A DNA stretch of 64,000 nucleotides from Tubulanus polymorphus (taxonomy: Eukaryota > Animalia > Nemertea): contig NC_134031.1 in the NCBI RefSeq assembly GCF_964204645.1, positions 7,440,001 through 7,504,000 on the forward strand. The letters are read 5' to 3'. Both the position numbers and the translations under genes were made by a program. The notes below the pieces were generated by a model that had not been told where the DNA came from, did not search any database, and saw only the letters and a list, made by a program, of their open reading frames with translations. Shown piece by piece: positions 541 through 64,000 of this stretch (its first letter is position 1; each line of letters opens with the position of its first letter).

Positions 541-16551
<16,011 letters not shown>

Positions 16552-17403
16552 CGAAAGTTGGTTCAGCACTACTTTATACCGTGATCGCGGTGTGAAATAC
16601 ACGTAGCCCGTACTTTTTTCGCTGTCACTTCCTCATTTCTGGGATTTTGTTTCCAGGAAATTATTTCCTGATAGATGGCAGCACATTGCTGCCACGGACC
16701 GGTGAAAGAACGGACTGCGTCGAATCTACTCGGTGCCAATATACCGGTACCTTTAATAATAGTGTTCATTGATCATGTGAAATTGGCATTCCATTTGGAA
16801 TTAATTTTAACATCTCACAAACAATTTTCATTAAACTGTACAGTTTGGCGATTTGATTTAAAGGATTGATCTCGAAAAATGTATGCGGAAAAATGTTCAA
16901 AATCTCAGACCATGGAGTAATCATTTTCTATTTGGGCATAACCCACTGGCCCACCTGGTTATTAACAAAAGATCCCTCTCCACATAGGCAGTCTAAAAAA
17001 CTTTCAGTGCTCTCAGCCTTCACATCATACTGCATAAAACTCTTAAAAACCGCCTGGGACCAGTAATTGTTCAAGTTGGTTAAAATAAATCATTGGGTAA
17101 ATACCTTGGTAACAATCCGGTTTTAAGTCATCATATCCACTGGTTATATTCATCAAACTTTTAAGCAATAGACCCTGTATACCACTTTAAGTTGGAGAAC
17201 CCTTTGGATAGGTGAAAATCGAAATTGAAGATCATCATGAACATATGGCCAGAACTCAAAATTGAAAGAAAAATAGAAACAGTTGGAAGTCATATAGACA
17301 TATTTATTAAAAACATTTCTTCATACACAAAATATCACACACCAATTGAAAGTTACATACTCGCTCACACCCACAATATGACCATAAAAACAAATCGTAC
17401 TTT

Positions 17404-34700: not shown

Positions 34701-36667
34701 AAAAACTGGCCCTATCAGAATCAAGATGGCCGACTGGCAGCCATTGTTGTTCGCCAAAATCAGCACTTTTTACACATTTTTGAACTTATTGAGGGAAATT
34801 TTGAAGACGCTTTGATCAATTTCCTTGATCTTTCCGATATATGTGAACCCCCCCAGGGCCCATCAGCATAACAAAAATTGGGTCGATCGGACTTAAGATG
34901 GCCGTCCTATGACCTTTTTAGTGCCCAAAAATGATAATTTTGGCCCGAATTCTGAGTCCTGTAGCTTCCTACTGGTTTACCATTTCTCATTGCAATTTTG
35001 ATGGGCATTCTTTGGAAAGGGATGTTTTATACCTGAGACTATTTTATACCTGAGAGTTATTTTTCATCAGCCAATTATGACGCAATTGGCGGCCATCTTG
35101 GTGTCACCAGTACTCATTCGTAAGTGGGAAAAAGTTTTTCCACATTATATTGATACCTAAGCGTATTTTGTTACCACAATCATTTAGAAAGTTGTAGCTC
35201 ATAACGTGTTCTATGATTGTAGTGAGTTTCAAGGTCATTGGATTTTGTATATGGCCACCAGGGGGTGTTGAATAATGCAATATCTTAGCATTTCTATATT
35301 ATATTCGTACCTATGCATATTTTGTAACCACAATCAATTGGAAAGTTGTAGCTCATGACATCATCTACTATTGTTGCGAGTTTTAAGGACATTGGTTATT
35401 CTATATGGTCACCAGGGGGCGTTGAATAGTAGAATAACTTAATATTTCCTTATTATATTGGTACCTAGGCATATTTTGTTACCATGATCAATTGCAAAGT
35501 TGTAGTTCATGACATGTTCTATGAATGTGATAAGTTTCGAGGTCATTGGGTTTTGAATATGGTCACCAGGGGGCGTTAAATAGTAGAATAACTTAGTTTT
35601 TCCATATTAAATTGGTAACGAGGCATATTTTGTTATCACAATCAATTACAAAATCGTAGCTGCTGACATGTTCTATGATTGTGGTGAGTTTCAAGGTTTC
35701 GCATTGGTTTTTGTATATGGTCACCAGGGGGCGTTGAATATTGAAATTGTTAGATTGTTGAGCATTTGGAACCACTTCCCAAGTGGGCATGGTGTCCCTG
35801 GACCCCTAGTTTAACTTATGATTGATTTTATGATTTTGATATCGACAATACTTTGATATTTAATTCCTTCTTAAAAGTCTTTTTTTCTTGATCAAATAAT
35901 TCTGTAAAAGTGATATAATGATGGAGCCCGCCCACCATAAGGCAAACACAATGGTCAATGCGTTGGGTCTTAACTAACAATGAATCCAAATTGGGCCCCA
36001 GAATATGTTAGTAGGGTACTGGTCTAAAAACTGTACCTTGAAATCAATTATTTACATAATTTTGCTTTAAAAAGCCACAAAAGTATTATTTGGGTGGAAA
36101 ATGAGAATTTAGGGGTGCCCCTTAGTTCATGCAGATTTGCGAGAAAGATTGATGAATTTGCGAGGAAAATATTTGCGTGAATTTTAGTGAATATGGAGAT
36201 TTTCACAAATTTGGAATTATGGGAGGATTTTCGACGAAGATTGCGTGCGTGCCAATAGTGAATAAGGTCCCTGGTAGTGAGAATTCACATTGGTATTTTT
36301 TGATACAATGGTAACGATAACTTTTATGTCACTGGCTCCTGTACTGTTAACCAACTGTTCTGTGTAGCAATGAAGATTGTAAGGTCCATGGTAACTACTT
36401 TTGCCGACTATGTTTTTTAAAGTGATTATGGTACTTTTCACCACGTGAATTTTTCATTAATCTGACCTTACAAACCTTAATCTGACCTTACAAAAGCTGC
36501 GGCAATAATTTACGTACTTAATGACATTTTTTTTCTTTGAATACCATGTTTTTGACGAAATCTAAGTAAACACACTTATGACGGAACCTTGCGATAAATG
36601 TTGTATTTTCTATTTTCAGGATTTTATGTTTTTTGAGCAAAATCAACAAAATCAGAATAATTATTAG
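22736..36667 (+). CDS. PLSCR: Phospholipid scramblase (PLSCR family)
   Basis: Exons 22736-22991 (Pro/Gly/Tyr-rich N-terminus), 23629-23748 ([24 protein letters not shown]; GC donor), 28995-29072 ([18 protein letters not shown]), 29269-29345, 30245-30375 (Cys-rich), 31054-31171, 32171-32273 ([18 protein letters not shown]), 32607-32665 ([19 protein letters not shown]). The last exon is one of 32806-32892, 33685-33729 or 36620-36667, all starting DFMFFE. Confidence 0.95.
25960..26475 (+). mobile_element. 5'-truncated non-LTR retrotransposon (RTE-X/L2-like 3' end)
   Basis: C-terminal [33 protein letters not shown] zinc knuckle, then a 3' UTR, AATAAA (26445) and an (AATTG)n tail. Confidence 0.75.
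26532..26841. mobile_element. MITE (Harbinger-like TIRs)
   Basis: TIRs AGCCGCGATCACA / TGTGATCGCGGCT. Internal subterminal GGCCAAATTTGGCC repeats. Confidence 0.7.
26855..27032 (-). mobile_element. tRNA-derived SINE
   Basis: Minus strand has A box TGGCGGAATGG and B box GTTCGAACCCC, followed by SINE core-like GTGCCCTTAGACAAGGCA. The cloverleaf stems are broken. Confidence 0.7.
34518..35811 (+). mobile_element. HINE/DINE-1-like element with 154-bp tandem array, copy 2 (5' fragment also at ~33516-33630)
   Basis: TT-TAGCCCACTTGGGA subTIR, inverted TCCCAGCGGGCTA, (GTCC/GTCG) microsatellite, four ~154-bp units (35257, 35411, 35565, 35723), 3' subTIR TCCCAAGTGGGC, hairpin GGTGTCCCTGGACCCC, CTAGTT end. 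Confidence 0.85.
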
Positions 36668-46769: not shown

Positions 46770-47468
46770 TTAGAATGATACGAAATACGAATGCGTTCTT
46801 CACGTCAGATATTTCACCGCATTACTTAAAGGTAGTAAACATTTAACCGACCGAAATAATTACCGAATGGCATTCCATCCAATTAACATATTCCTCTAAA
46901 GAAGACACTGAGGAAGGTCTACACATCGCTTTAAGCTTAATGTGTTGGTTGCGCCACCTCGGAGGGCTTTTTCCGAACGACCGGTCGATGACATTGACGG
47001 AGTTATCCAGAAGGCGTTTAACCTCCCGAGACTTCAACCACCTGAGGTCTCCGGCTCTATATCCCCCAAAGCATTGTAATTTAATCCAAGCGCCATCCCG
47101 AAAAGCAATGGCTTGGTCCCTGTGGCTTAAGACTGTTCTACGTTTCCCCCCTTTAGGTAATTGGCGATCCGACGTACTTTATTACCGAACGAGGGTTCCC
47201 TTCGTTGACACATGGGCTAGGGCCTGCTCATATTTACTGAATTTCGCGTACGCTTTTACTTCATTCGATTTTGCCGTGTTTCCCCTTTGGAAGAGCTTAT
47301 CCCTTCCACTAATTTGAAAATGCTGGCAAGGTTATTGACTATAATATTTTCTACGGTGCTAGTCACTAGACGGGCAATGGCATACATTTAATCTGCATTT
47401 ACCTGATTCCTTACAAGAAACCTTATGGACCTTGGTTTTTTCGCAACCGTATATCCAGATTGATTAAA
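46770..47468 (-). pseudogene. Older degenerate tyrosine-recombinase retroelement (DIRS/PAT-like), YR half
   Basis: Frameshifted minus-strand translation gives CHCP..TVENII..LASIFK, GNTAKSNEVKAYAKFSKYEQALAHVS and RDGAWIKLQCFGGYRAGDLRWLKSREVKRLLDNS..FGKS, matching the RD..F..GDRxGDL recombinase region of this clade. Confidence 0.65.
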
Positions 47469-48118
47469 AATTGGAAAAATAACCGAGACTTACCTGGAAG
47501 TTGAAGGTTGTTTCTAATTCTGTCGAACTGCTGACCAATGGAGAGGTTACATGAGATACGCATGCGTAGATCCGACAGTCAATGTTCAACTTGCGAAATT
47601 TATCACAAAGTTACAATGGTGAGGTTAACTGGGTGAGGTTAAAATAAGGGAGTGCATGTAACCTCTCCATTGGTCAGCAGTTAGACAGAATTAGAAACAA
47701 CCTTCAACTTCCAGGTAAGTCTCGGTTATTTTTCCAATTCTATCTAACTGCTGACGTCATTACGAGGTTCCATGAGATGTTCAAAGTTGTGATAAATGAG
47801 TAAACCATAAATTAAAAACAACTATAACGCAAATCTAAAATTTACCAAAACATAACAGCATATATTTGCTTCAAATTTCAGCAACCCAATCTCAGGGTTT
47901 CATAACAAAACATATTTACAGCTCAGGCGAATAAAGCAAAATGTTCGCCTAAAAAACCACCAACAACTTATTCACACTAACTGATTTGCAAAAACCACAA
48001 AATCCAATCTGCCAAAACCAAGCAGTAAGTTATCTAACAAATAACTACTCAAACTCAATGATTTTTAACAATCTTTCACCACTGCATAAAACAGATTTGT
48101 ATACACGAATATTCCAAT

Positions 48119-49044
48119 TCAAATTACATTGAAATTTGATTCATCAGCTACAGGTTTCCTGTAATATTTTCTAAACACTGATTGATTTGACCATCCTGCC
48201 GTCTTCAATATAGATTGTATAGGCGTATTATTTCTTTCTGCCGCCGTAGTTGCCGCTGACCTAGTACTGTGAGGCGTAAAAATTGTCATGTCAACTCCTG
48301 CCCTTGTAAGCATTACTCTTATCCACCTTGACAATGTATCTCTACTTATAGGTCCATGTGATTTCACATATGAAATAAAAAATTTTGTTGTATCACCACG
48401 CAATTTTTCTGTTCGATTAAGGTAAACTTTACAATAGTTCACAATACAAAGACGTCTGTCTGGTACATAGGCTTTTAATGTTATCTCGGCCTGATGGAAA
48501 CCTGGCCTGGACTGTTTTAACAAATCACCAAACCGAATTTTTAACTTGTTTGTGGTAAGCGTTATATTTCTCAAGTCGATCAGATATAGAGACTGTCCTC
48601 TCGTTGACCAGTTAACAGCGCCAGTAATAAAACAAACTTTAATGTGAGATCTTTTAGCGACAAACTAACTGCCGGAGACAGGCCTTTCAGGAAATTTAAT
48701 ACTGGTTCCACCGACCAAATAACCCTATTTCTGGGTAAAGCTGGCCTTAAATTAAATATACCTCTCATGAATCGGCTAACTATGGGTACCTGACCAATAG
48801 GAGTTTTATCTAGATACAAAAAGGTAGAAAGCGCTGATCTCGCTGTATTAATGGCACTGTAACTTAGGCCTTTAGAATACAACTCAGATAAGAAATCTAA
48901 TACATTATTTACACTTCCCTCGTAGGGATCAGCATTCCTCCGAGCACAAAAACCGAGCCATTTGCGAATTTGCGTTGAGTATTGATCACGTGAAGACTCT
49001 CGCCACGATGCCGTGATAATGTCTCTAACTTCCTGAGAAAACAC
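48119..49044 (-). pseudogene. DIRS tyrosine recombinase
   Basis: SAINTARSALS, LTGQR (catalytic Arg), FTPHSTRSA (HxxR), AGWS, FRKYY (catalytic Tyr). One frameshift near 48580-48600. Confidence 0.93.
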
Positions 49045-50963
49045 TCCGTCTGTTGTTGTACGCCCGATATCCTCGCCGCGAAAAGATTCATCTTCGGTAG
49101 CTCGCTCATCTGTCTGGACGGATGCGTAAGAAGAGTGCTGTGGACTCTGGAGGATAGGAGAATAGGATAATCAATTAGCATGTTTACACATTTAGAAAAC
49201 CAATATTGTGTAGTCCAAACTGGAGCCACAATGATTGCCTGAGCACTTTCTAGCTGCTTGGATTTTTTTGTAGCGTCTTGCCCACCAAACAGAAGGGTGG
49301 AAACGCATAGACGAACTCTTCATTACACGGTACAGAGAATGCATCAACTGCTTCTGCCTGTGGATCCGGTTTCCAAGAGAAAAACCTTGGAACCTTGTGA
49401 TTATTTCGGGATGCAAAAAGATCAATAGCTGGCTCACCCCAAATTTGACACAACTTTCTAAACACTATGTCATTCAGGCCCCATTCAGTGTTATCATGGT
49501 AAGTACGACTCATAGCGTCTGCCTCAGTGTTTAGGGCTCCTGGCAGATAAGCAGCTGTCAACCATAAACCTCTAGCCTTGCACCAAAGCCAAGTTTCCCT
49601 AGCTATAGCATTACATTTTTCCTTTCTGCCGCCCATATTATTTAAGTAGGCGACCGTGACTTGATTATCAATTCTAATCAAGATATGAGTATCTGTTTCC
49701 GTTTTACACAAAGCTTGTAGGGTGAAAAGGGCAGCTTTCATCTCAAGTTGGTTTATATGCAAAGCTGCTTCCCAGCTAGACCGATTTCCACCCGTCTTAA
49801 GATTTCCTCGTGTTCCTCCCCACCCTATGCCACTAGCGTCAGAAGTGAGGAAAATTTCTGCTGGGGGCCTGGAGATTGGGTGGCTAACTTTCATTACATT
49901 TTGAGTCCACCACTGCAGATCCTCTCTGCACTCTTGATTGAGTTTCATTTTTGCGTTATAATTTCCAGCAGAATTTTTCAGCTCTCTTAAGATTGTCACA
50001 CCTTCTATAGTATAGTTTGCCATACTCAACGGCCTGAAAACTAGCCACCATCGTACCCACTAGAACTGCTAAGTCCTGTATCTTAATAGACTCTTTCTTG
50101 AGGGCATTGCTGGCAAGTTTCAAAATTTTTTCCCTTCTTTCTTGAGTGAGGGATATAGTCATTTTTATAGAATCAAAAACCACGCCAGCAAATGTAACCC
50201 TTTGAGCAGGGTCCATCATTGATTTTACAGGATGAGTAATGAAACCTGCGCAATCAGAAACCTCATGGGTATCCCTGACAGTCTTTCTGCACAGTTGTAA
50301 GGTCTGAGCGACCATAAAACAGTCATCAATCCAGGTAACCAATTGATGCTTCCTCAATTGAGAGAGAATCACCTTGACAATTTTAGTGAACAACCTCGGA
50401 GCTGACGTTAGTCCGTTCGGCATGGCATTGTAGGAATAGTATTTATCTCTCCACCTGAACTTGAAATATTTTCTAAATTGGTCTGCAACAGGAATACATT
50501 AATACGCATCTTTCCAATCAATAGTGGCCATATAACATTTAGGAGTAATCAAGTTAATGGCAGAATCTAGGGTGTCCATCTTAAAATGATGATATACAAT
50601 GACCTTATTAAGTTCTGTAAGATCTAAGATAACTCTCAAAGAACCATCTTTTTTATCTCGAGTAAATATGTTGGATACAAATTGGTCTCGTTCTTTTTTC
50701 GACTCTTGAATGACACATTTCTGGAGCATTTTCTCTACTTCCAAATCTATCAAATCTATCTTGTGTGACATGGTGACATCGAAACAGTATGGTTTAGGTT
50801 CTCTAAACTGGTTGGATACATTCTCAAATTCAATTTCGATGCCCCTAACCAACGACAGGATGTGTCGATCAGACGTTAGAGTTTTCAAAAAATCCAAAAA
50901 CTGAGCAATTCTGCCAGCTTTAAAATTTTTTACATCTGACTGAGCTTTAGCCAAGATGGACAC
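48909..50963 (-). pseudogene. DIRS reverse transcriptase / RNase H / Dam-like methyltransferase
   Basis: RT: RVILDL, DWKDAY, MPNGLTSAPRLFTK, WIDD. RNase H: SDASGIGWGG, HINQLE, IDNQ, NTEADAMSR. MTase: DLFASRNN..YAFPPF. Contains stops and frameshifts. Confidence 0.92.
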
Positions 50964-51010
50964 CTTATATTCATCCCACTCTAGATCAAAACTAGTTACC
51001 TGCCTGTTAG

Positions 51011-52058
51011 CTACTTGTTTCTTTCGGCCTTCTTTTTGGTGCCCTGGTTGCTTTGGTATGACCTCACTCTGTTGCCGCGGCCTCTCTGGTACTGATGGTA
51101 TTGTTGGTTGGAGGATTGATGACTGGAGTACTGTTGGCGGGAGCGTTGGTATTGGTAATGGTACGCGCCGCCCCCTCGCTTCGCTAAAAAATGAGGTCTC
51201 ATTTTATAATTCTGTATTTTAGAGTCACGTTGAGAATACTCTTTGTTGAATATGGCGCCAACTTTAGAGGGGTCATTGAGCTCTTTGACCTTATTTGCCA
51301 AGTCAACTCCAAATAAAACTTCAGAGGACTCTTTAACACTCTTACTGGCACAAATCGAACGATATTTTGGGTTTATGTGAGGTCTAAGTTTGTAGCGCCT
51401 TTGCTCTGCCAACGAGTGTATGGCTGCGCATGAAAGCGCAAACACATCCATCGTCATTTTAACGGCAAGTTTCAGATCATCTTGCTCCTTATTACTGAAA
51501 GCTCGATAAAATTCATCAGCTAAATATACGCCAGCATAGGCGGCTTTCGCCATTTTTGTGCCCATTTTTTGCAATTTAACATCATGGCTTCTACATTCTG
51601 ACGATATCGAAGACCAGATTTCTGGATTGATTGCGGGAGACCCCACAGCGATATTTTCGGTCAGACTAAACTTTGCAGGGATATTTACCTGGGCCGTTTC
51701 GCTGGAGGTTCGCCCTGAATAATAGCGCACATTTTTTCTAACTTAGAGTCAATAAGACTGCCCACTTTAGATAGAATCATAGCCTCAATTCCATCAAATT
51801 CATGTGAATTTTCATCATGAATTTCAAGCGCCGGTGAGGGATTGCCCCCATTACCACGGTTAGAAGGCTTGTTTTTATCCAACTTTCTGGTACGGGATCT
51901 GTCTTACTAATTTTAGCGACTGAGGCACACTCCGCGCTCGACTTATTAGCCGAGTCACCATGATTTTGAGGAAATTGTGAAAGAACACTTACTTCGTCAT
52001 TCACTGCATTTTTCTTCCATTTCTTCCATTCTTCCATTTCTTTGGCCATGATCGGCAC
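51011..52058 (-). pseudogene. DIRS gag-like ORF1 (frameshifted)
   Basis: PAINPEIWSSI..DVKLQKM..QRRYKLRPHINPKYRSIC..LFGVDLANKVKEL, typical of DIRS ORF1. Split across three frames. Confidence 0.75.
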
Positions 52059-52373
52059 CGGTAAAATTCAAAATGGCGGAGCGGTTCCGACACGCGAACA
52101 GTGAACACCAGAAAACAAAATCCAATCGCATCCACCAACAAAAAATTTTGTAACACAATGTCAAACGCCCAGCGTTGCTTAGATGGCCTAACAAGACGAT
52201 TGCGCCTTATAAGTTAGGTTTTGACACCGATAAACGAAAATTCGATCCCTTCAATCCGAATAATAGAACGACAAAGCACTGAACTTCGCCGGATCAAGCA
52301 TGCAATTGACTGTCGGATCTACGCATGCGTATCTCATGGAACCTCGTAATGACGTCAGCAGTTAGATAGAATT

Positions 52374-53131
52374 CGACATCCCCTGGGCTAGCAGAAAGAA
52401 TGGTTGTTTGAGTGGCACTAGCCCTTGAAGATGTATCCACAGAAGCGTGGCCGTCTATCCCTTTCAGGCCTCGATAACTGAGAAACCTGGGGAAATGATT
52501 TCGGATTTCCTGCGGAAAGGGGAGATGGTACCTTGTAAAGTGTTTCAGCTTAAAGCCTGTAATGATCGCATGGCATTAGCATCCAACTTTAACATCCAAT
52601 TAGATATTTTTGTATATCACTCCATATTTCCGGATCCAGGTAGGCGTCCTGGGGAGAGACGACTCGACTCCATTTATCCAACGGGTTTGAGGCAAAATGG
52701 TATGTATGAGATGGACAGATCAATATATCGTTAGTGTAAATCCAAATATCTGCTTGACGATGTCGTTAAAACGGGTGTTTCTCTCGCCTTCTAAGTTCCA
52801 AACAGAGATAAGAGCCTTGTTATCGACCAATGTTTCGACTCTCCGGTGTTTCGACTGGCCAACTAATTTCCCGTTGAGAATTCGCAAGCCCTTCAGTTTC
52901 CTTTAGCTGTTGTCTCCTGGTAGCCAGTAATCTGTTCAAGGGTACGTGACATGTCCTTCTGTCAGTGGTACCATGCCGTATCCTGACAGGGAAGCATCTG
53001 TAGCCAATTGAAAAGAAACGTGCTTTTCCACTCTCCATTTTACAAAACCTTGCCAATCCTCGAGAACCTCCAATGCAACACGCTTAAAGTTACCATCCAC
53101 CGAAGTAATATGGAAAGTGGGCTTTCAGATC
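52374..53131 (-). pseudogene. Older degenerate tyrosine-recombinase retroelement, RNase H/MTase half
   Basis: Minus strand reads LEDWQGFVKWRVEKHVSFQLATDASLSGYG, KETEGLAN, VDNKALISVWN, IDLSISYIP..SNPLDKWSR, LDANAMRS..LKHFTRY. Contiguous with 46770-47468 once the DIRS1 element is removed. Confidence 0.72.
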
Positions 53132-53188
53132 AGAGTACGAGAGTACGAGACACCACTCATCACCACAAGTAATTTTTTTTCCTTATAA

Positions 53189-56100
53189 ATGGGGGAGAAT
53201 GAACATCAGCCAGAAAACAATAATGCTAATAAAAATCAATATTATTGCCCATATTGTAAAAAATACATCGATAAATCTAATAAATCTTAACATGAAAAAT
53301 CTTCAAATCATATAAAAAATGTTATAGATTTTGAAACTCCAGAAAATTCCAATGAAAGAAAAGAACGATTAGAAAATATGAATGTGGATGAAATAAAATG
53401 TGAAGTTTGTGATGAATTTATAACAAAAAGGAATTATATTAGATTAATAGAATAATATAATAAATTATAATATCTCGAAACAGAAAAACACCGTCAAAAT
53501 TTGAGAAATAATGTTTTAGGAATAGATAATTTTGATGATAAAACTCAACAAGTAAAAAAACCAACTTCAAAAACTAAATCCATTTCAAATAAACCTTACA
53601 TGGAAAATGTTAGAAATTATATTGATTCACTAGAAATAAGAGATACAATTGAAATATTAGAAACATTACGTAGTAAAATTGGTCCTGCAGCTATTATATT
53701 TAGATTTTTTAAAGGTACAACAATAGAAGATTATAGTAAATTTAATGAAATGATAGAAAAAATACTAGATTTGATAACAGATGTTGAATATCCAAAAATT
53801 AGTATCTCTGGGAAAGTAAGTTTTTTAAAGTCAGAAGATAAAATGGATTATGATATTCAAACACTCTCTGAAGAAATAATTTCAAAAACACAAATAAAAG
53901 AGAAGTTAGAAAAAATATTTAATGAATTTAAACGTCATATTGAAGAAAGATATTTTGAGGGTTCTGGCTTAACATTGAATGAAATTATATTTTTAGATTT
54001 AAATGTTTATAATACAAAAAGAAATAAAACATCAAAAAGTAATAAAATGTTTAAAAATGATTCAAACTTTACAACAGAAAAGGAGTATATTAAAGCATCA
54101 TCTTATATTAAATTACCATTTACAACAAAAGCAGTAATAAATATTCAAAATGAAGATAATAAATGTTTTCTATGGCCAATTATTAGTTGCTTACATCCAA
54201 CACAGGAAAATGTTTGTAGAATAACAGATTACCGGAAATATGAAACATTATATAAAATTGATCAATATCCAGTAACTATAAAAATGATTCCTAAAATAGA
54301 AAAAGTTAATAATTTAAAAATAAATGTATTCGAATTAATGCAATTACCAAAGACAAAAGGTGAAAATATTAAAGATTATACATTGGAAGCTTTATATTTA
54401 ACAGAATATTATGATGATGAAAATGCTATAGATTTGTTATATTACAAAAAAGATGAAAATGAACATTATATGTGGTTAAAACAAATTGATTTATTCTTTA
54501 GAACAGAAAGTGATCATCATCATAAAATTTATCTATGTAGAAAATGTTTATCTAAATTTATGACTGTGAATACATTATTAAAACATAAAGAATTATGTGA
54601 TAATAAAGATTTTTGTAAATTAATAATGCCAACAGAAAAGATTATAAATTGAAATTTACTAATCATAAATTCAAAAATATTGTTCCATTTGTAATTTATG
54701 GGGATTTTGAATCGTTGAATAAAGAATTAACTGATCAAGATAGAAAAGAAATATATAACAAAAAGCAATTATTAAAATCAATGGATAAAGGAAATGAATT
54801 AAACGAAGACACAACACAAGACCCGCCAATTATAAATACAATTAAAAAAGTTCATCAAAGAGCTGCTGCTTATGGAATTTACATCAAATCAAATTATCCC
54901 GAATTATATGAAAGTCAATATATTTCTTTTAGAGGTGAAGATGTAGTTAATGATTTTTGTGACAAAATGATTGAATTAGAAAGTGATTTTGCAAAATTAT
55001 TAAACAAAAATAAAAGAATAGTTATGACAAAAGAAGATGAAATTGATTTTAATTATGCTACTCATTGTTGTTATTGTGAAAAACGTTTTTATTCATTTGA
55101 TAAAAAAGTTAGAGATCATAATCATTTAAATTCAAAATATCGTGGAGCTGCACATGAAGATTGTAATTTACAAGCTAAGAAAGTTAATTTTGTACCAATA
55201 TTATTTCATAATTTATCAGGCTATGATACCCATCTATTTATAAAACAATTATCGGGAAAATTGGGCGCAATTAATCAAGAAATAGAAGAATATAATGCTA
55301 TGAATGGTGTAAATGTAAGAAAATATGATTTTAAACTATTAGCTAAAATATCTGAAAATTATATTTCATTTCAATTTGGTTGCATTAGATTTTTAGATTC
55401 TTATAGATTTCGAGCAAGTTCATTAGATAATTTAGCAAAAAGTTTAGTTGATAATGATTTTGTTATAACTCGATATTATTATCCAAATGAACAAGATTTT
55501 AAATTATTGAGATATAAAGGTGCAATGCCTTATTCATTTTATAAAACACACAATGATTTTAATGTAACAGAATTATTAAAAGATCAATTTTATGATCAAT
55601 TAAAAGAGGAGTACGTGAAAGATGAAGTGTTTAATAGAACATTAAATATTTGGAACCATTTTAAGATGAAAAATCATGGTGAATTAGTTGATTTATATTT
55701 AAAATCAGATGTTATGATATTGGCTGACATATTTGAAAAATTTAGAGAAGTTAATTTGAATCATTTTAATGCTGATCCTTGTTATTGCTACTCTAGTCCT
55801 GGTTTAAGCTGGCAATGTGGTTTAAAATACACAAATGTAGAATTAGATTTATTAAAAGAACCAGACATGGTTTTATTATTTGAAAAATCAATTAGAGGTG
55901 GAATTAGTGGTGTTATGGGAGATAGGTATTTTAAAGCAAATGATGAATACAAATTATTATATATTGACGCCAATAATCTATATGGTTGGGCAATGATGCA
56001 ACCTCAACCATATAAAAATTTTATATTGACAGAAGTTGAAAATGATGATAAAACTGATTGGGAAAGCGCAATTGTGAGTTTAAAAGATGAAGCACCAATT

Positions 56101-58228
56101 GGTTATTTCTTTGTAGTTGATTTAGAATATCCTGAAAATATAAAGTTTAAAACAAGAAACTTACCTTATTGCCCAGAACATTTAACTGTAGATGATAGTT
56201 ATTTAACTGAATACCAGAAGAAAATAAAACCGAAAGATCATGTTTTTACAGAAAAATTAATACTTACTCAAAATAATAAATACAATTATATTGTTCATTA
56301 TAGGATGTTAAAATTTTATCTAAAACAAGGAATGAAATTAAAGAAAGTACATAGATATATTGAATTTAATTAATCGAAGTGGTTAGAAAAATATATAGAT
56401 TTCAATACTCAACAGAGATTCATATCAAAAACATATTTTGAAAAGATTTCTTCAAATTAATGAATAATAGTTTTAATGGTAAAACATGTGAAAATATTAG
56501 AAATAGAAATGATATTGATTTAGTAAATAATTCTGAAAGATTAAGACATTTACAATCAAGTCCTAGACATTTAGGAAATAAAAGATTTGAAGATTATTTA
56601 ACAGCAGTTAAATTAAAAAGATCGTCAATGAAATTTAAAAAAACCTATATTCATTGGTTCAACTGTTTTAGAAGTATCAAAATTATTAATGTATGATCTT
56701 TATTATAATGTTTTACAACCACTTTTTGGGGAAAAACATATAGAAATCTTATATTTTGATTCTGTTACAGCTGACACCCCAATATTATTAAAATGTAATG
56801 ATAAAATATTGATAAGAAGAATTTCAGAAATAATTCCAAAGGAAAATGAACGTTATATTTCATATGGTGAAAAAGAATTAATATAAATAAATGGTTTAAT
56901 GAATGTTTGGACAAGAAATGGATGGAAAAAATTAAAGAATATTATTAGGCATAAAACAAATCAGAAAATCTATAGAGTTAGAACTAAATTAGGGTTTGTA
57001 GATGTTACAGAAGATCATAGTTTAATTAAACGAAATGGTGATGAAATTAAACCAACTGATATAAAAATTGGAGATGAATTATTACATAAAAGATTTTACC
57101 CAAGAATGAATCATATGTCATTCGACGAAATTATTGATAATATTTATAATATGGAACCTGAAACATTAGAAGAAAAAGAATATTTTATCAAAGGATTTTT
57201 TATGGGAGATGGTTCAGCAGGTGTGTATAATTATGTTTGGGGTAATAAATATTGTTGGTATTTATGCAATCAAGACTTAAAATTATTAGAAAGAATTAAG
57301 GAATTCTGTGAAGAAGTTTATTCACATAAAACATTTAGAATCAAGGCATGTTATGAAATCATCAGCAGTTTATAGAATACTTGTAAATAATCCTAAAGAT
57401 TTTGCTATAAAATATAATGATGAATTCTATATTCATGCAATAGTGAAAAGTAATACTTCAACAAAAGAAAAGATAGTTCCAGATTATGTATTATATCCAG
57501 ATTATTTATTAAGTATAAAAAGATAACCTTTGCGCAAAAAGGAAAAGTTGCTATATCAGGATTAAATGTATTATGCAATTCATTAGGTTTTAATATGAAT
57601 ATTGGATTGATTAAATCTAAACCAAATTGCTTTAATTTAAACCATGTAGAAAATGAGTTAACAGAAGAAGTTAAATATTTATTTGAAATATGTAACCCAA
57701 CAGATTATGTTTATGATTTATCAACTGAAGATGGCACATTTAACTGTGGATTTCCATTAATAGCCAAAAATACGGATGCGTACATACTAAAAATCAAGAC
57801 AAATGACATAACAAAAGACTTAAAAACATTAAAACATCATTTTGATTTTAGCAATTATCCCAAAGATCATGAACTATTTAGCAATGATAATAAAAAGATT
57901 CCTGGAAAGTTTAAAGATGAATTAGGGGGTGATGAAATGATTGAATTTGTTGGGATAAGAAGTAAAATGTATAGTTACAGAACAAAAGATCATGAAGCTA
58001 AAAAGTTAAAAGGAATAACAAAACATGTGGTTGATAAACATATAGAATTTCAAGATTATATAAAGTGTTTATATAACTCAATTGTAATGAAACACAAAAT
58101 GAATTGTTTAAGATCAGAAGATCACGAGATGTACATTAATGAAGTTGAAAAAAACTAGTTTGAATCCATTTGATGATAAAAGGCATATTTTAGATGATGG
58201 TATAAAAACATTACCTTATGGTTATTAA
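53189..58228 (+). pseudogene. Protein-primed family B DNA polymerase (pPolB) containing an intein
   Basis: N-terminal C2H2 fingers, OTU-like INIQNEDNKCFLW..EHY region, ExoI VIYGDFES, EndoVII-like insert, ExoII FHNLSGYD, ExoIII YLKSDV, motif A IDANNLYGWAM, motif B KLMNNSFNGKT, motif C LYFD|TDAY split by the intein, PGKFKDE, KLKGI, C-terminal PFDDKRHILDDGIKTLPYGY. Several stops and frameshifts (53288, ~54650, 56371, ~56445, ~56640, ~58150). Confidence 0.95.
56761..57771 (+). mobile_element. Intein with LAGLIDADG (DOD) homing endonuclease in pPolB motif C
   Basis: Block A SVTADTPILL (Ser1), block B DVTEDHSL (TxxH), block C FIKGFFMGDGSAG, block F YVYDLSTEDGTFNCG, block G IAKN followed by Thr+1. 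Removal restores YFDTDAY. Span is 1011 bp. Confidence 0.93.
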
Positions 58229-59541
58229 AATGGATCAATATCATCAAACTCGAAATCACTATTGGTTTCTTCTTTTTCATTTAATTGTTCTTGTATAATT
58301 TGTTTAGGTTCTTCCATTTCATTTTTCTCATTTAAATAAAGTTCTATCTTGTACCACATTTCATCTCGCTCTCTTTGTTTCTTTTTGTTCGTTAATTCAT
58401 CAAATGGAATTATAATATCGATGTTTAAATAATTTACAATCTTATTTAAAAAGAATTCATAATTAATTGAATCTGTTATTTTATTATCCACATAATATTT
58501 TAATATGTTTGTGAACGTTTCTTTTATATTTCTTATATCTTCTTTTGTTAATTTAGGTTTTTTATAATAATCGTTAAATAATAAATATAAATACATTTTC
58601 TTTTCTTGTGTGTTAAATGTTGACGGAATAATTGTTTTTATTATATCTTTTTTAGTTATTTCGCCATTTTTATTTTCTATTTTTTTCATTTTTTCAAGCC
58701 ATTGCTTATATTCTGGTGTATGATCTTCCGTAGAAAATATTTTAAAAATTTCATCTAGATATTTTAATTTTGGTTCTATAAGAATATTTCTAGTTTTTTC
58801 ATCACCCCATAAATTCTTTTGCCATCCACATTCATTACAAAATATCACAGGACCTTCTTGTCTTAAGTACTCATAAATACATTTTGGGCATTTTTGTCTA
58901 TCATTTCTTAGTAATAGATCTTCATTAAGCTCTTGGTATTTTCTTACGTTTTCTTTATGTTTTATTGTTCTATTACGTAGATTTAAATTACTTGTTGTAA
59001 TAATCAATTTACAATAATATGTTTTTCTTACTAATTCATTATATTGTTTATCTAACTTTTCAACTATTTCTTTATTATCTGGTAACGTTTTCTCATATTT
59101 TATTTCTTCTAATAAACTATTTTTTCTTTCATTGAATTCTGTTTCGAATTTATTAGAAATTTTATCTATATGTACTTTACGAAATTGATGATTCTCCCAA
59201 GCTTCTATATTTTCAGGACTAAATTTCATTCGGCAAGGCTCACAGAAATGATCTTTTATATTATCCTTGTCAAAGAATAAGAAAGGTCTTTTCCAAATAA
59301 CTTCAGGTTCAGGTTCAGCAGAATTACTATTACTTTCGTTACTATCAACATTAACCGTTGCGTTATTAATTTTAGAATTCTCTGAATGTTTTTTAACATA
59401 ATTTCTTGAGAATAATTTATTACATTTTGGGCAGTTTATTTTAGGGGGTTTATAATTTTCATCATGTTTTTTCATATGTCGCGCCATATTACTTTTTCTT
59501 AGAAGTTCACCACAAATTTCGCATGGTATCATCTCATCCAT
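58225..59541 (-). CDS. Zinc-finger protein with C-terminal poxvirus/NCLDV late transcription factor VLTF3-like domain (438 aa, intact)
   Basis: N-terminal C2H2 fingers. Zinc ribbon CPKC..GPVIFCNECG, then KLKYLDEIF and INYEFFLNKIVNYLNI..LTNKKKQRERDEMWYKI, resembling the VLTF3 consensus (YxxxLxK..L..K...D.IWKKI). Its stop overlaps the pPolB stop (TTAA 58225-58228). Confidence 0.68.
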   Translation of the reverse strand: MDEMIPCEICGELLRKSNMARHMKKHDENYKPPKINCPKCNKLFSRNYVKKHSENSKINNATVNVDSNESNSNSAEPEPEVIWKRPFLFFDKDNIKDHFCEPCRMKFSPENIEAWENHQFRKVHIDKISNKFETEFNERKNSLLEEIKYEKTLPDNKEIVEKLDKQYNELVRKTYYCKLIITTSNLNLRNRTIKHKENVRKYQELNEDLLLRNDRQKCPKCIYEYLRQEGPVIFCNECGWQKNLWGDEKTRNILIEPKLKYLDEIFKIFSTEDHTPEYKQWLEKMKKIENKNGEITKKDIIKTIIPSTFNTQEKKMYLYLLFNDYYKKPKLTKEDIRNIKETFTNILKYYVDNKITDSINYEFFLNKIVNYLNIDIIIPFDELTNKKKQRERDEMWYKIELYLNEKNEMEEPKQIIQEQLNEKEETNSDFEFDDIDPF

Positions 59542-59610
59542 TTATTTAGGAAAAATTTTATTAAAATTAATTTTTAGTGATGAGCGGTAATTTTTTTTAT
59601 GTTATAAATA

Positions 59611-60369
59611 ATGGTAGAATTAAAAGAATACAGAATATTTGTTGATTCTAGAAAACGTACAAATTATAAATCACATAATTTATTAGTACAATTAGATAGA
59701 GAATTTAAGAATTGTGTTGATTTGAAATTAGTTAATATAAGTTTATGTAATTCTTTTTATAATGTATCGGATAAAAGTCTAGAACATTTAATTTTTTCAA
59801 TCTTTTACAAAAAAAGGAATAAATGGTTTTTTATATATTTAAAACCAGGATTATATAATTTAGATACATTAGCACAAGAAATTAATAGAAAAGCTCGAGC
59901 TTAATTAGGAAGTGATTCCGGATTTAGTATTAGATTTTCAAAAAGTGATAGTTCTAATAAAATAAAGATTAGGTTAGCTCATGACGAACAATTTAAATTT
60001 ACAGTAAGAAAACCTTTAGGTAAACTGTTAGGAATTAACCCAGATATTGTTACAGTAAACGCAGAAGGTAGATCAAATTTAATACCTTACACACATTTCT
60101 GTATTTATTGTAATTTAATTGATCCTACAAAAACATTTGAAGCAACTAAAGATACAACATGTAATTCTAGTATATTAAGTATTTTACCATTGAAGAACGT
60201 TAAACAATTTGGAACGCAAATAAATTATAATTTAGCTGAATGTGATTTTAAACCTTGTATTCCACATTTCAATAATTTTAAATTAGAAATAAGAAATCAC
60301 AATGGATATCTAATTGATTTAAATAACTTTCCTGTGATATATGAATTAGTTATAAGATGTAGAGAGTAA
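59611..60369 (+). pseudogene. Minor capsid (penton)-like protein, single internal stop at 59902
   Basis: Read-through gives 252 codons: IFVDSRKR..FKNC..L.NSFYNV..KPGLYNL..EIN..LGKLLGI..CIYCNLI..ILSILP..FG..FKLEIRNHNGYLIDLNN.PV.YEL, a single jelly-roll penton pattern. Confidence 0.7.
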
Positions 60370-60385
60370 TTTTTTCATTATATAA

Positions 60386-60745
60386 ATGAATATAACTGTT
60401 GGACCGAGTATATGTTTTGGGTTTGATTGTAAACGTGAGAAAGAAATGAAATTTAACATTAATGATGTAATTATACATATTAAAAATATTGCATTTTCTA
60501 ATGAAACATCATTTGAGTATGAAACAACAATAGATAAAGAAACTTTAAATGTAGAAAAGATTACTAATTTAATTAGAGAATCTTTAAGATTTTATGAATT
60601 AGATGAAGATTTTATCATCGATGATATTAAAAAAATAATAATTGAAATATATACAAATGAAACTAGTAATGAAATAAATGTTGAATTAATCATAAATAAG
60701 ATAACTAACTATTTTGAAGATAGTAATTTTTTGATTAATAAATGA
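60386..60745 (+). CDS. Hypothetical Polinton protein (119 aa)
   Basis: Intact ORF preceded by the conserved TAATTTTTT..TAAATG motif. Confidence 0.6.
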   Translation: MNITVGPSICFGFDCKREKEMKFNINDVIIHIKNIAFSNETSFEYETTIDKETLNVEKITNLIRESLRFYELDEDFIIDDIKKIIIEIYTNETSNEINVELIINKITNYFEDSNFLINK

Positions 60746-60973
60746 GTGATAATAAGTGGATAATAACTGGTTTATATAATGGAGCCTTACTATCAGTTGG
60801 AACTGTTGGTTATTCAATGGTATTAAATAAGAAGTATTTAAAATGTGAAGTGTTAATGTTGATAGATTTGATATCAATGATATTTTAAAATTAACATTAG
60901 CAGTTACTTTATCTAATTTAACTATTGATTATTTGGAAAAACAAAAATATATTCCTCCCATATAAATGCGTAA
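60742..60973 (+). pseudogene. Small Polinton protein (frameshifted)
   Basis: Motif-preceded ATG at 60742. MSDNKWITGLYNGALLSVGTVGYSMVL / ..DRFDINDILKLTLAVTLSNLTIDYLEKQKYIP resembles small conserved animal-Polinton ORFs. Confidence 0.55.
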
Positions 60974-60989
60974 TTATTTTACTAAATAA

Positions 60990-61415
60990 ATGGCTTCTGC
61001 AATTATAACTATTATAGGATCGGCAATTGTTATCGCTTTAGCATTTACTGGTGGTGGTTATTTATTTAAGCATATTGATAAAAATAGTTCATTAGGAGAA
61101 CAAAGAAGACATAACTTAGCATTAGAAAAATACAATAAAGCAGCAGAAGAATATAGAGAAAAGAGGCAAAACTATATGGATTATATTAACAAGGAATTAT
61201 ATGATCAGAAGATTTCACATAGAGATTTTCAATCAGTTAATGATGCAATGAGTTTATATAACGCGGTAAGCAATAAAGAAAAATTACATCTATACAAACC
61301 TAAATTATCAGATTATTATACCCCAAGTAAAGAACAACAGAAATATGAAATAATTTGGATTTTAGGCGGAACAGTTATTGTTATATTTGTAGCATATAAA
61401 TTTACTAATAAGTAA
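60990..61415 (+). CDS. Conserved Polinton protein with N- and C-terminal hydrophobic helices and central coiled coil (141 aa)
   Basis: MASAIITIIGSAIVIALAFTGGGYLF..EQRRHNLALEK..DYIN..DAM..Y, a pattern recurrent in invertebrate Polintons. Motif-preceded ATG. Confidence 0.7.
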   Translation: MASAIITIIGSAIVIALAFTGGGYLFKHIDKNSSLGEQRRHNLALEKYNKAAEEYREKRQNYMDYINKELYDQKISHRDFQSVNDAMSLYNAVSNKEKLHLYKPKLSDYYTPSKEQQKYEIIWILGGTVIVIFVAYKFTNK

Positions 61416-61430
61416 TTTTTTTCTAAATAA

Positions 61431-61884
61431 ATGGATGATAAAGTTGATAATATTGATATTATTCCTCATGATATAAATAAAACTAAATTAAAAATATATT
61501 TAGAAAAACAAATATTAGAATTTGAAAAAGATTTAAAAGTTATTAAAAATTCATATTATTTAAAAGAAAAAATATTTAAAATCTAAAATTATATATTATT
61601 TGATTATAATTGGTTCGGTTACAATTAGTTCTGTAATAACATTTCTAGCAATATTTTCGCCATTAACACCTTTAGCTATATCAATTGGCGTATGAGGATT
61701 AAGTTCAAGTGTTTTAACTGCTATAAGTTCAAAATTAAATATAAAAAGTAATAAAGAAAAAATTAAAACTAATATAAAAGAAATTAATAAATTAATGAAT
61801 ACACTAGATTATATAATACGTTTAAATGGCCATATAACAGTTGAAGAACAAGATAAATTATTAAAAGAATCAATAAATTATTAA
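61431..61884 (+). pseudogene. Two-TM coiled-coil Polinton protein (disrupted)
   Basis: Motif-preceded ATG. One frameshift and one TGA. Hydrophobic IIYYLIIIGSVTISSVITFLAIFSPLTPLAISIGV*GLSSSVLTAI. Confidence 0.55.
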
Positions 61885-61899
61885 TTTTTAATTATATAA

Positions 61900-63306
61900 A
61901 TGGTAGATAGTTTTCCAAAAGCTTTCCAATATAATAAATCAATTAAATATAATATTCCAGCAATAGATTTTAATAAAGATATTTCATATAGAAATGAAGT
62001 TTTAAATTCATTAATTGCTTTATATATTTATGTTACTGAAACTAATTATTTTAATGTTAAGATGGGAAATATATTTCATGTGTATACAATTAATTTCAAA
62101 AATTTAAATGAGGCAAAACAATGGTTATTAAAATCTAATATGAAGTATTGGCAGAACCAATTAAATGTTGCTGTTTATTGTGCAACAACAGGATGTGGAA
62201 TTAGTTGGAATGATCATTTAAACAAACCAAGTTTACCATTGATGTTATCACTCTTTAGATTTCATACATACTTTCAAACAATATTAATATTAGATGAATT
62301 AGAATGTCCTTTACCAGGTTCAAAATTTTTTAAAGAATTGAATAATAATATTAATTTTTCTAAGGTTATAAAATATGTAATGAATTTAATATTAATTCAA
62401 ATAAAGATTTTAGAGCCAAAATTGGAACAATGGGTGGATTAGGAATATTATATACTAAAGAATTTGGAAAAATAATGGCAAATTCAGATATAAGAACACT
62501 AAATTGGAATGAATTACCAAAATATTATAATAATATACAACAACAAAACAATAATTGTTGGGTTAATTTCATTTTAGAAAATAGTGAAGGTTTTACTAAA
62601 GCTGGAATACAAAGAATAAATCAATCTATTAGAACTTATTTGATATGTATTTTAGGCGCGCAAGTTGAAACAAGATCACCAATAGTTGGAAATGATAACA
62701 CTTCATTCGATGCGCAGAAACAATTCAAAGTATTATTTGAAGATTTAATTCATAATGATAAAAATAGATCGATTCCAGAAAACATTGTAAGATATCAAAA
62801 TTCTTTAGATAGTATTATTTGAAGATTCAATTCATAATGATAAAAATAGATCGATTCCAGAAAACATTGTAAGATATCAAAATTATTTAGATAAATCTCA
62901 TGTAAGACTAAATTATTGTATAGGCCCTAATCTATTAATTATTTCTAATGATTTAGTATTAAAGATGGGAAATATAATTGGTTATAATAATCTAATTAAA
63001 ACTGCAACAATAAATAATTCATTTGGATTGAATGATATAAATAAAAAGATAATTACTGCTCCCAAATTAATGGAAGGTGAAAAAAATAAAAAACACATTC
63101 AATCAACTGAAGCTAAAACTAAAAATATTAAATTGGATAATGATTCTAAAATAAAAGATTACAATACTACAGAAAATATTAAAACTGATAATATTCAACA
63201 TGAAATAATTAAACTAAATGATGATAATAAATCCCATGAAAATGCTAAATTAGCTTTAACTTTTATAGGAATTGTAATCGGAGGAATATTATATTTTAAA
63301 TTTTAA
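61900..63306 (+). pseudogene. Conserved Polinton protein with C-terminal membrane anchor (disrupted)
   Basis: YWQNQLNVAVYCATTGCGIS..HL, FRFHTYFQ, SEGFTKAGIQRINQSIRTY..CILGAQVETRS, DAQKQF, IGYNN, C-terminal LALTFIGIVIGGILYF. Broken by a frameshift at ~62370 and an 82-bp tandem duplication (62729-62810/62811-62892). Confidence 0.72.
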
Positions 63307-63322
63307 TTTTTTTATTATATAA

Positions 63323-64000
63323 ATGGATGTAGAAATTCCATTGGATCCTTTAGATGAACCTTCTAATTCTAATTTACCTACACTTGAATATATTGATAAA
63401 GCACGTTCAAAGATAAATACTGAAAATGAAGTTACAGAAATAACAAAAAAAGAATTAAAATATGACAATTTAACTGATAAATTCAAACCAATATTAGAAA
63501 AATCTGGATTCAATATAACAAATGAAGGTGTGAATTATTTAGTAAAAGATTTGAAATATTTAAATGGTGATTATTATTGGAATTTGAAAGATGACTATTA
63601 TTTTAAGATTTCTTCTAATTAAAGTCTCGATAAAATAATAACAAAATCAACTTTTATTAAATTAGAACAATCTAGAATTAAGAAAATCAATAATGATGTT
63701 ATAACTGATGTTACAAAAGAAGAGATAACTCTAAATAGATGGGAATTTAATCGAAGAAATGATGATTTTTTGAAGATAATTAATGAAAATTTAGAACCAA
63801 AAACAATTCCTAAAGAAGTTGATAATTCCAAAACTAGTAAAAGTCAAATCAACCGAAGTTCAAACTGAAAAACTTTTACAAAATGGGTTACTTGATGCAA
63901 CAGATCAAGAATTAGAAGATTTAAATATATTTTCTGATGAAGCAATTAGAGAAATTATTAGTATGATTAAATTATTATTAGTTATAGAAATGAAGCTGAT
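63323..64000 (+). pseudogene. Hypothetical Polinton protein (disrupted, truncated by window edge)
   Basis: Motif-preceded ATG. The frame continues past the TAA at 63620. Confidence 0.5.

Follow-up and report, generated by a model that had tools for sequence, protein, structure and literature searches.

The subject of this report is a candidate late transcription factor gene carried by a likely Polinton in the nemertean Tubulanus polymorphus. The DNA analyzed (the window) is the 64,000-nucleotide stretch at positions 7,440,001 to 7,504,000 of contig NC_134031.1, and all positions given below are numbered from its first nucleotide. On the minus strand, open reading frame (ORF) inspection reveals a frame of 438 codons (58225-59541) with no internal stops. 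Its product is very probably a divergent homolog of VLTF3 (vaccinia A2), judged by sequence comparison, although it is not a member by Pfam thresholds. The same element carries a uniform start signal at its genes, and this pairing of factor and signal is a stronger lead than the intact frame. We consider it an evenly balanced prospect that the divergent VLTF3 helps the RNA polymerase of a co-infecting large DNA virus to start transcription at the T-run and TAAATG signals of the element.

Homology and predicted fold of the VLTF3-like protein

The homology call is carried by a language-model search and by profile alignments. Specifically, 29 of 30 ESM-Atlas feature matches to the ORF fall in the VLTF3 set, with a best value of 0.95. 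When aligned by hhalign, the ORF matches 23 giant-virus VLTF3s at 88% (E 2.9e-6, 199 columns) and 12 poxvirus A2s at 83% (E 9.6e-6). As controls, another ORF of the element reaches 0.3% and 0.1%, and a true A2 reaches 2.4% against the giant-virus set. Thus, the ORF fits each VLTF3 subfamily better than the tested A2 fits the giant-virus set. The giant-virus sequences come from 120 loci fetched by a short motif, six of six tested being Pox_VLTF3, and three of three tested poxvirus A2 references are Pox_VLTF3 as well. When relaxed to a degenerate pattern, the motif of the ORF itself returned 117 viral matches, and 38 of the best-scoring 45 among these are poxvirus A2 proteins. A 12-sequence poxvirus profile gives the ORF 17.0 bits, a score above 999 of 999 shuffles and the highest among 233 ORFs of the window.

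Both motifs named by the sequence-only reading, the CxxC..CxxCG ribbon and the C-terminal INYEFFLNKI, were found (residues 218-238 and 359-368). The ribbon precedes the helical domain and aligns with the ribbons of the giant-virus and poxvirus VLTF3 subfamilies. Its spacing of 13 residues recurs in all 10 poxvirus rows that have the ribbon, whereas giant-virus proteins have 14-16. Similarly, INYEFFLNKI and W396 are spaced by 27, a value found in all 12 poxvirus rows, whereas 20 of 23 giant-virus rows have 28. Like poxvirus A2, the ORF is also without the 13-residue insert YEHIPFIKDKLG of giant-virus VLTF3. A tree of 38 rows (14 poxvirus, 23 giant-virus and the ORF; entomopoxvirus, asfarvirus and iridovirus sequences not included) places the ORF on a branch 4.38 changes per site long, outside both the poxvirus and the giant-virus clade. 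A poxvirus origin, as the spacings might suggest, was given no backing by this tree and was abandoned.

The VLTF3-like identity claimed by the sequence-only reading holds as divergent homology in the ESM-Atlas and hhalign comparisons, but not as a Pfam match, the check that reading had proposed. Pox_VLTF3 (PF04947) and the A2L ribbon (PF08792) give no match to the ORF even at E≤10, and this is the first of several results that weigh against the assignment. A 68-sequence giant-virus hidden Markov model (HMM) scores the ORF at -4.4 bits after bias correction, with 62 of 1000 shuffles as high, and is not significant after removal of the selecting motif. The score against the poxvirus profile leans largely on the motif used for fetching those sequences. 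Without bias correction, the giant-virus HMM is significant, with none of 1000 shuffles as high. A motif-masked poxvirus HMM, also not significant, was set aside as an unfair control because masking penalized the motif columns.

Wider searches add few relatives. Neither the PHROG nor the NCBIfam library holds a family match to the ORF above cut-off. Word-indexed protein searches scored none of 4,853 and none of 162 candidates as homologs, and an alignment-based protein search accepted 29 of 3,311, all of them poxvirus-type A2 and none a Polinton relative. [quoted passage not shown] A metagenome motif scan gave 16 matches, one a poxvirus A2 and the others due to chance, and no tblastn match to the element ORFs; a PDB sequence search with the ORF gave chance matches only. 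One could ask whether the likeness is a false match, in which a helical protein rich in lysine and encoded by AT-rich DNA happens to carry a generic zinc ribbon. In favor of this are the lack of a family match above cut-off in Pfam, PHROG or NCBIfam, the three word-indexed searches, which gave only poxvirus proteins of the query alignment's own family, and the composition bias of the ORF, which HMMER puts at 16-41 bits. Regardless, the language-model search and two profile alignments with clean controls agree independently, and the ribbon and motif-to-Trp spacings match poxvirus A2 exactly, which makes a false match highly improbable.

Structural comparison used a model folded on the giant-virus VLTF3 alignment (pLDDT 73.8). 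Among BFVD structure matches at E≤0.001, five of eight are named VLTF3 or late factor, cowpox being first; the cowpox and entomopoxvirus proteins lead the list with E ~1e-5, template modeling scores (TM) of 0.45-0.56 and a root-mean-square deviation (rmsd) of 9-10 Å. When the model is compared with solved chains (VIA, 48,161 chains), the top 13 are chains of RNA polymerase II (Pol II) and Pol III initiation complexes, cyclins, Rb pockets and a chain of the origin recognition complex (ORC). The best is a chain of a yeast Pol II initiation complex (Z 6.9, rmsd 3.6 Å over 98 residues, 10% identity); this is chain M, which we take to be TFIIB. Several points count against this evidence. A single-sequence AlphaFold model is poor (pLDDT 39.9), the structural matches overall have an rmsd of 8.6-17.5 Å with no Z of at least 8, and the BFVD and solved-chain results are partly circular, since VLTF3 sequences guided the folding. 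The AlphaFold and Foldseek comparison suggested in the sequence-only reading gives a divided picture: VLTF3 stands at the top in BFVD, from a VLTF3-guided model, but Foldseek finds no PDB match at E≤0.001. That reading would have been refuted by a lack of profile or structural likeness to VLTF3 or to TFIIB-like cyclin folds, whereas profile likeness is present in the hhalign alignments and structural likeness, with the circularity just noted, in the BFVD and cyclin-fold matches.

The N-terminal zinc fingers described earlier are borne out by the patterns of finger 1 and of the third module. However, finger 1 lies under the Pfam cut-off (zf-C2H2, E 9e-5, 23.1 bits versus 25.2) and finger 2 is damaged, in a region where the window copy is unlike nearly all reads at codons 55-56. 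No read joints interrupt the ORF at notable depth, and thus the fusion of fingers to the VLTF3-like module is a family trait rather than an assembly accident. The third module weakly resembles the N-terminal finger of pPolB (pairwise blastp E 2e-4), and the fusion may stem from shuffling within the element. Two CxxC fingers at the pPolB N-terminus (53189-53500, plus strand) are weakly like those of the ORF, and 40 reads jump over 53270-53589, such that finger number differs among element copies.

The start signal and its possible readers

All nine visible genes of the element, those for the VLTF3-like protein and pPolB included, open with a TAATTTTT-like core, followed after 6-11 nt by TAAATG (in one case TAAATAATG). 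The signal is richer than the TAAATG promoters claimed by the sequence-only reading, in that the putative promoters combine a T-run core with an initiator at every start. The pattern matches nine times in the element, always at starts, versus ~1.1 expected (maximum 5, in 150 Markov resamplings per order), and once each in 46.8 kb of host DNA and 6.3 kb of DIRS DNA. That the pattern was composed after the sites were seen counts against these figures. T occupies -8, -9 and -10 at eight of eight TAAATG starts, but at only two of 28 other TAAATG sites in the element. TAAATG opens eight of nine element genes. Across 12 poxvirus loci it opens 95 of 312 ORFs, with T at -10 in 47 of the 95; the corresponding counts are 27 of 268 for giant-virus VLTF3 loci and 18 of 278 for other AT-rich viral loci. 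By sequence, the predicted signal fits the published late consensus of vaccinia, TAAATG with T at -10 (available text of PMC11980589; PMC5294985 is likewise cited for this fit).

A simpler account, in which the T-run is no more than the stop codon of the preceding gene and a terminator, was discarded, since the signal stands at three starts without a same-strand upstream gene and once inside a coding frame. The word CTCATCAC occurs just twice in the window, at 53156 (plus strand) and 59577-59584 (minus strand), upstream of pPolB and the VLTF3-like gene, and from these two cases it is possibly an extra element for both genes. The word TTTTTNT is mildly rare in element coding stretches (7 versus 15.7 expected, share 0.036), as it is in one of two poxvirus loci.

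If the proposed use of a helper polymerase is correct, the factor would act like a one-repeat TFIIB, with a zinc ribbon, one cyclin-like fold and added zinc fingers that might contribute DNA or partner binding. The signal would serve as a core-plus-initiator promoter, with transcription beginning inside TAAAT as in poxvirus late genes, and the polymerase reading it would be viral and cytoplasmic, supplied by a co-infecting large DNA virus. Because the VLTF3-like gene bears the same start signal, the helper's own factors would fire the first round, after which the element's factor would amplify transcription or bias it toward element DNA. This scheme would apply to active members of the likely Polinton family rather than to the decayed copy in the window. 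There are precedents for such dependence, since the available text of PMC11998528 has Sputnik virophage sharing mimivirus promoters and that of PMC11296320 places Polinton-like viruses (PLVs) in entomopoxvirus occlusion bodies.

The recruitment or redirection of helper machinery put forward by the sequence-only reading thus gains from the promoters and from virophage precedent, but loses from viruses that keep VLTF3 without an RNA polymerase, namely mriyaviruses (PMC11253617) and ariadnaviruses (10.64898/2026.08.29.747986), according to the available parts of both sources. Other facts also weigh on that side: vaccinia late transcription additionally needs A1 and G8 (available text of PMC11980589), a helper would supply its own VLTF3, and the helper-virus account, plausible as it is, invokes a postulated helper and predicted promoters.

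The nuclear dependence of those polymerase-less viruses invites a different explanation, by which the element runs an autonomous nuclear program. The VLTF3-like protein would replace or supplement host TFIIB and steer host Pol II to the T-run and TAAAT, the fingers would tether it to DNA, and no helper would be involved. The top solved-structure match, in a Pol II initiation complex, agrees with this explanation, as does the integration of the element in nuclear DNA at tens of copies (a rough figure), and a factor of its own makes more sense if the element has no helper. Yet the signal is fused to the ATG, which leaves no space for a TATA-to-start spacing, and TAAAT initiators are documented for the polymerases of poxviruses and yeast linear plasmids. 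In addition, AATAAA is not avoided: there are nine inside the VLTF3-like ORF and 40 in 8.5 kb of element coding DNA (34.6 expected), and two poxvirus loci are the same in this respect. This comparison had no nuclear AT-rich control, which counts against its use for the helper reading. Finally, the shared signal at the VLTF3-like gene means that a first round needs another source here too. We therefore prefer a helper RNA polymerase and hold host Pol II to be rather unlikely, although a serious rival.

A broader proposal builds on the helper polymerase and is offered tentatively, as something we would sooner doubt than believe. A family of animal Polintons would be virophage-like parasites of a poxvirus-related invertebrate helper, with a poxvirus-late-type promoter before every gene and a finger-fused VLTF3 that commandeers the helper's RNA polymerase. 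This VLTF3, closer in the profile alignments to poxvirus and giant-virus VLTF3 than these are to each other, may be a deep lineage. If true, such a lineage bears on how Polinton-like ancestors acquired the transcription factors of nucleocytoplasmic large DNA viruses (NCLDV). Whether animal Polintons express their genes as autonomous viruses or as hyperparasites becomes testable by 5′-end mapping, given a cognate factor-signal pair. Non-templated A leaders that start in TAAAT would indicate a viral polymerase and an undiscovered helper, whereas ordinary capped starts would indicate VLTF3 working with host Pol II.

The element, its copies and the intact frame

The element is a low-GC block (23% GC, versus 32-42% elsewhere) that begins near 53,170, where its left side meets a DIRS-type element (near 53,140-53,170), and continues past the window end, its right end lying beyond position 64000. 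It is likely a Polinton. No family match to integrase, major capsid, packaging ATPase or protease was obtained among the ORFs visible within the window, which weighs against this identity; since the window shows neither terminal repeats nor genes for integrase, major capsid and ATPase, the name is likely rather than proven. The features are collected in the table.

Table 1. Features of the element, with positions in the window
Feature	Positions	Strand	Basis or remark
ORF: zinc fingers, helical linker, VLTF3-like module, acidic tail	58225..59541	-	438-aa ORF
C2H2-type finger 1, residues 7-26, CxxC-x11-HxxxH	59464..59523	-	Pfam and pattern
Finger 2, residues 37-52, second His missing in window copy	59386..59433	-	Pfam/pattern
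Third Cys2-His2 module, residues 100-124, CxxC-x14-H-x5-H	59170..59244	-	pattern
C4 zinc ribbon, residues 218-238, CxxC-x13-CxxCG	58828..58890	-	pattern; spacing 13 as in poxvirus A2
Helical VLTF3 domain, ~residues 247-405, predicted single cyclin-like fold	58327..58803	-	alignment and model
T-run + TAAATG, VLTF3-like gene	59539..59558	-	
T-run + TAAATG, pPolB start	53170..53191	+	
T-run + TAAAT-AATG, DUF5901-like gene start, divergent from VLTF3-like gene	59588..59613	+	
T-run + TAAATG, 119-aa gene	60367..60388	+	
T-run + TAAATG, within upstream coding frame	60724..60744	+	
T-run + TAAATG, 141-aa gene	60971..60992	+	
T-run + TAAATG, gene at 61431	61413..61433	+	
T-run + TAAATG, gene at 61900	61882..61902	+	
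T-run + TAAATG, gene at 63323	63304..63325	+	
pPolB	53189..58228	+	Pfam DNA_pol_B_2 E 1.3e-12, above cut-off
Broken 1,011-nt intein, splitting the polymerase motif between YFD and TD	56761..57771	+	
DUF5901-like gene, one internal stop	59611..60369	+	Pfam DUF5901 E 5e-4, below cut-off
Six more element genes, four broken	60386..64000	+	no family matches; element exceeds window

The VLTF3-like gene and pPolB are convergent, as the sequence-only reading had seen. The TAA of the former (58225-58227, minus strand) shares bases with the final TAA of the latter (58226-58228, plus strand) within TTAA. On the other side stands the DUF5901-like gene, a likely candidate for the minor capsid gene. The pPolB gene is interrupted at 11 places. 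Its intein matches Intein_splicing (Pfam, E 5e-4), LAGLIDADG_3 (E 0.15) and TIGR01445 (E 0.004). One contig connects 56754 to 57770, a net loss of 1,011 nt that equals the intein length exactly, and read depth over the intein is 218, versus 382 over pPolB. Copies of pPolB without the intein thus likely exist. Homing-endonuclease insertions are known in Polinton pPolB (available part of PMC11161782); our literature search found no report of a full intein there.

Copies of the element were compared in raw reads of the same species from another individual. Depth is 382-fold over pPolB, 258-fold over the VLTF3 region and ~10-fold over the adjoining flank. At ~36 times the flank, the element is interspersed and multi-copy, although the retrotransposon in that flank makes a figure of tens of copies rough. 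The window copy is unlike most reads at many of its breaks and is thus a decayed member of a larger family. Loose read ends cluster where the VLTF3 slot begins and ends, 258 reads at 58200 and 330 at 59610, and depth falls from ~490-555 at the edges to 170-310 inside. This shows a sister subfamily in which the sequence that separates pPolB from the DUF5901-like gene is a different or more distant one.

This pattern at the slot is what one would expect of optional cargo: a gene captured long ago from a large DNA virus, which comes and goes between the pPolB and capsid genes and is not needed for the shared signal. Helper or host factors could then read the signal unaided, or it could partly be a translation context in DNA of 23% GC. 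In keeping with such cargo, synonymous changes are no more frequent than expected among the differences that the window copy has in common with some other copies (3 of 24 versus 5.4), and VLTF3 is patchy among coral polintoviruses (available text of PMC11131425). However, the gene region is present at about two thirds of pPolB depth and the gene has a start signal of its own, whose T-run, kept at a fixed distance, does not amount to a translation context. Past purifying selection is also needed to account for a ribbon and a C-terminal motif kept over 4.4 changes per site. We regard optional cargo as improbable and retain a VLTF3-like factor that serves the shared signal.

The intact frame deserves less weight. 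It had been called the only long intact ORF, but a longer open stretch (584 codons, 54619-56373) lies inside the broken pPolB and the 119-aa and 141-aa genes are likewise unbroken; what remains true is that this ORF is the sole unbroken complete gene above 200 aa. The sequence-only reading had allowed for chance or selection. Across the 9,344 coding nt of the other element genes there are 19 breaks, such that 1,314 nt would escape any break with P ~0.07, and chance is thereby a workable account. Selection on the window copy, through host domestication or continued activity, would explain why no stop or frameshift is present, and ~67 neutral changes on one lineage would spare the ORF a stop only ~1% of the time. 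Yet many of these ~67 differences are subfamily differences rather than decay. The window copy departs from at least 60% of reads at 76 sites within 58150-59650 and has one in-frame length difference from most reads, and the synonymous counts, which cover 40 of the 76, give 8 of 40 versus 8.4 expected under neutrality (5 of 16 versus 3.0 for near-private differences, p 0.16). Finger 2 is moreover damaged. Selection on this copy is accordingly very unlikely and was rejected on the neutral synonymous counts and the ~0.07 chance of an intact frame; its open frame is likely luck, not ongoing function.

Other features of the window were seen in passing. An 82-nt tandem duplication at 62729-62892 (98% alike) breaks the element gene at 61900-63306. 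A broken DIRS-type retrotransposon at ~46800-53100 (minus strand), with Pfam matches to reverse transcriptase and tyrosine recombinase, abuts the element upstream of the pPolB signal. An inverted pair at 8098-9194 and 34516-35811, 26 kb apart and ~90% alike, is a composite repeat of 154-nt units and likely a host non-autonomous transposon. An exon-sized frame at 16150-16632 (minus strand) has a signal-peptide-like stretch and a WCGHC thioredoxin motif, is one sign of intron-rich eukaryotic flanks, and presumably resembles sulfhydryl oxidase. Such flanks and the DIRS element also fit an animal host.

Comparison with known factors and elements

Poxvirus A2 or VLTF-3 (PF04947 and PF08792; vaccinia A2L, P0004) is collinear with the ORF over ~185 residues and provides the leading Foldseek match, and the two share the 13-spaced C4 ribbon, INYxFFLxKI with Trp 27 on, and the lack of the 13-residue insert. 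The ORF is longer at its N-terminus by ~215 residues, which include the three zinc-finger modules, and it differs further by an identity of only 17-23%, a C-terminal D..W.KI as in giant-virus VLTF3, a place outside the poxvirus clade, and scores below Pfam cut-offs. With giant-virus (Megaviricetes-type) VLTF3 it shares a long N-terminal extension, helical and closed by KY just ahead of the ribbon, and a C-terminal KK..E.D..W.KI. It lacks their YEHIPFIKDKLG insert and NFLSY motif, has a ribbon spacing of 13 instead of 14-16, and belongs to a small integrating element that also encodes pPolB. In TFIIB and related cyclin-fold proteins, a helical bundle of the cyclin type comes after a zinc ribbon, an arrangement also predicted for the ORF (model, Z 6.9); the ORF would have one cyclin-like repeat rather than two, 10% identity and Z below 8, and we propose TFIIB-like working rather than TFIIB itself.

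That a Polinton can carry VLTF3 has been described before, and little can be read from the unbroken frame of the window copy. The sequence-only reading was right that VLTF3 is not a canonical Polinton core gene, but the available text of PMC11131425 already describes it as an accessory gene of a polintovirus subgroup in corals, read as an exchange with giant viruses, and credits an earlier report by Krupovic and Koonin 2016. VLTF3 also appears in PLV clusters (10.64898/2026.06.19.733378) and in the figure key of PMC8502044, again in the parts available. The window element resembles these by description rather than by compared sequences, and the available descriptions include no zinc-finger fusion and no poxvirus affinity. 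In the same available texts, the word promoter does not occur in PMC11131425, and one supplementary file each of PMC11131425 (4 kb) and PMC8502044 (~4 million characters) has no match to VLTF. According to the available part of PMC11253617, VLTF3 homologs are not detectable outside Nucleocytoviricota; their presence in polintoviruses thus has not been widely absorbed. Our literature searches found no account of TAAATG promoters in Polintons or of a finger-fused VLTF3, although figures or bioRxiv supplements may describe either.

Among small elements, the yeast linear plasmids pGKL1/2 combine pPolB with a TAAAN initiator at which the polymerase slips (available text of PMC6211774). They differ in encoding their own RNA polymerase and in having an upstream conserved sequence (UCS), neither of which is seen in the window. 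Virophages and the PLVs of entomopoxviruses are, like the element, small integrating DNA viruses, and they share helper promoters or travel with a poxvirus (PMC11998528, PMC11296320, parts available). The available text on the entomopoxvirus PLVs (PMC11296320) mentions neither VLTF nor promoter, and helper dependence of the present element is our inference. Poxvirus late promoters have TAAAT over the start codon and T residues ~10 nt upstream (PMC11980589, PMC5294985, parts available), as the element signal does, but the element T-run is far stricter, with T at -8 to -10 in eight of eight starts versus eight of 95 in poxvirus loci. The interest of the element lies in its pairing of a VLTF3-like factor with a uniform, poxvirus-late-like signal.

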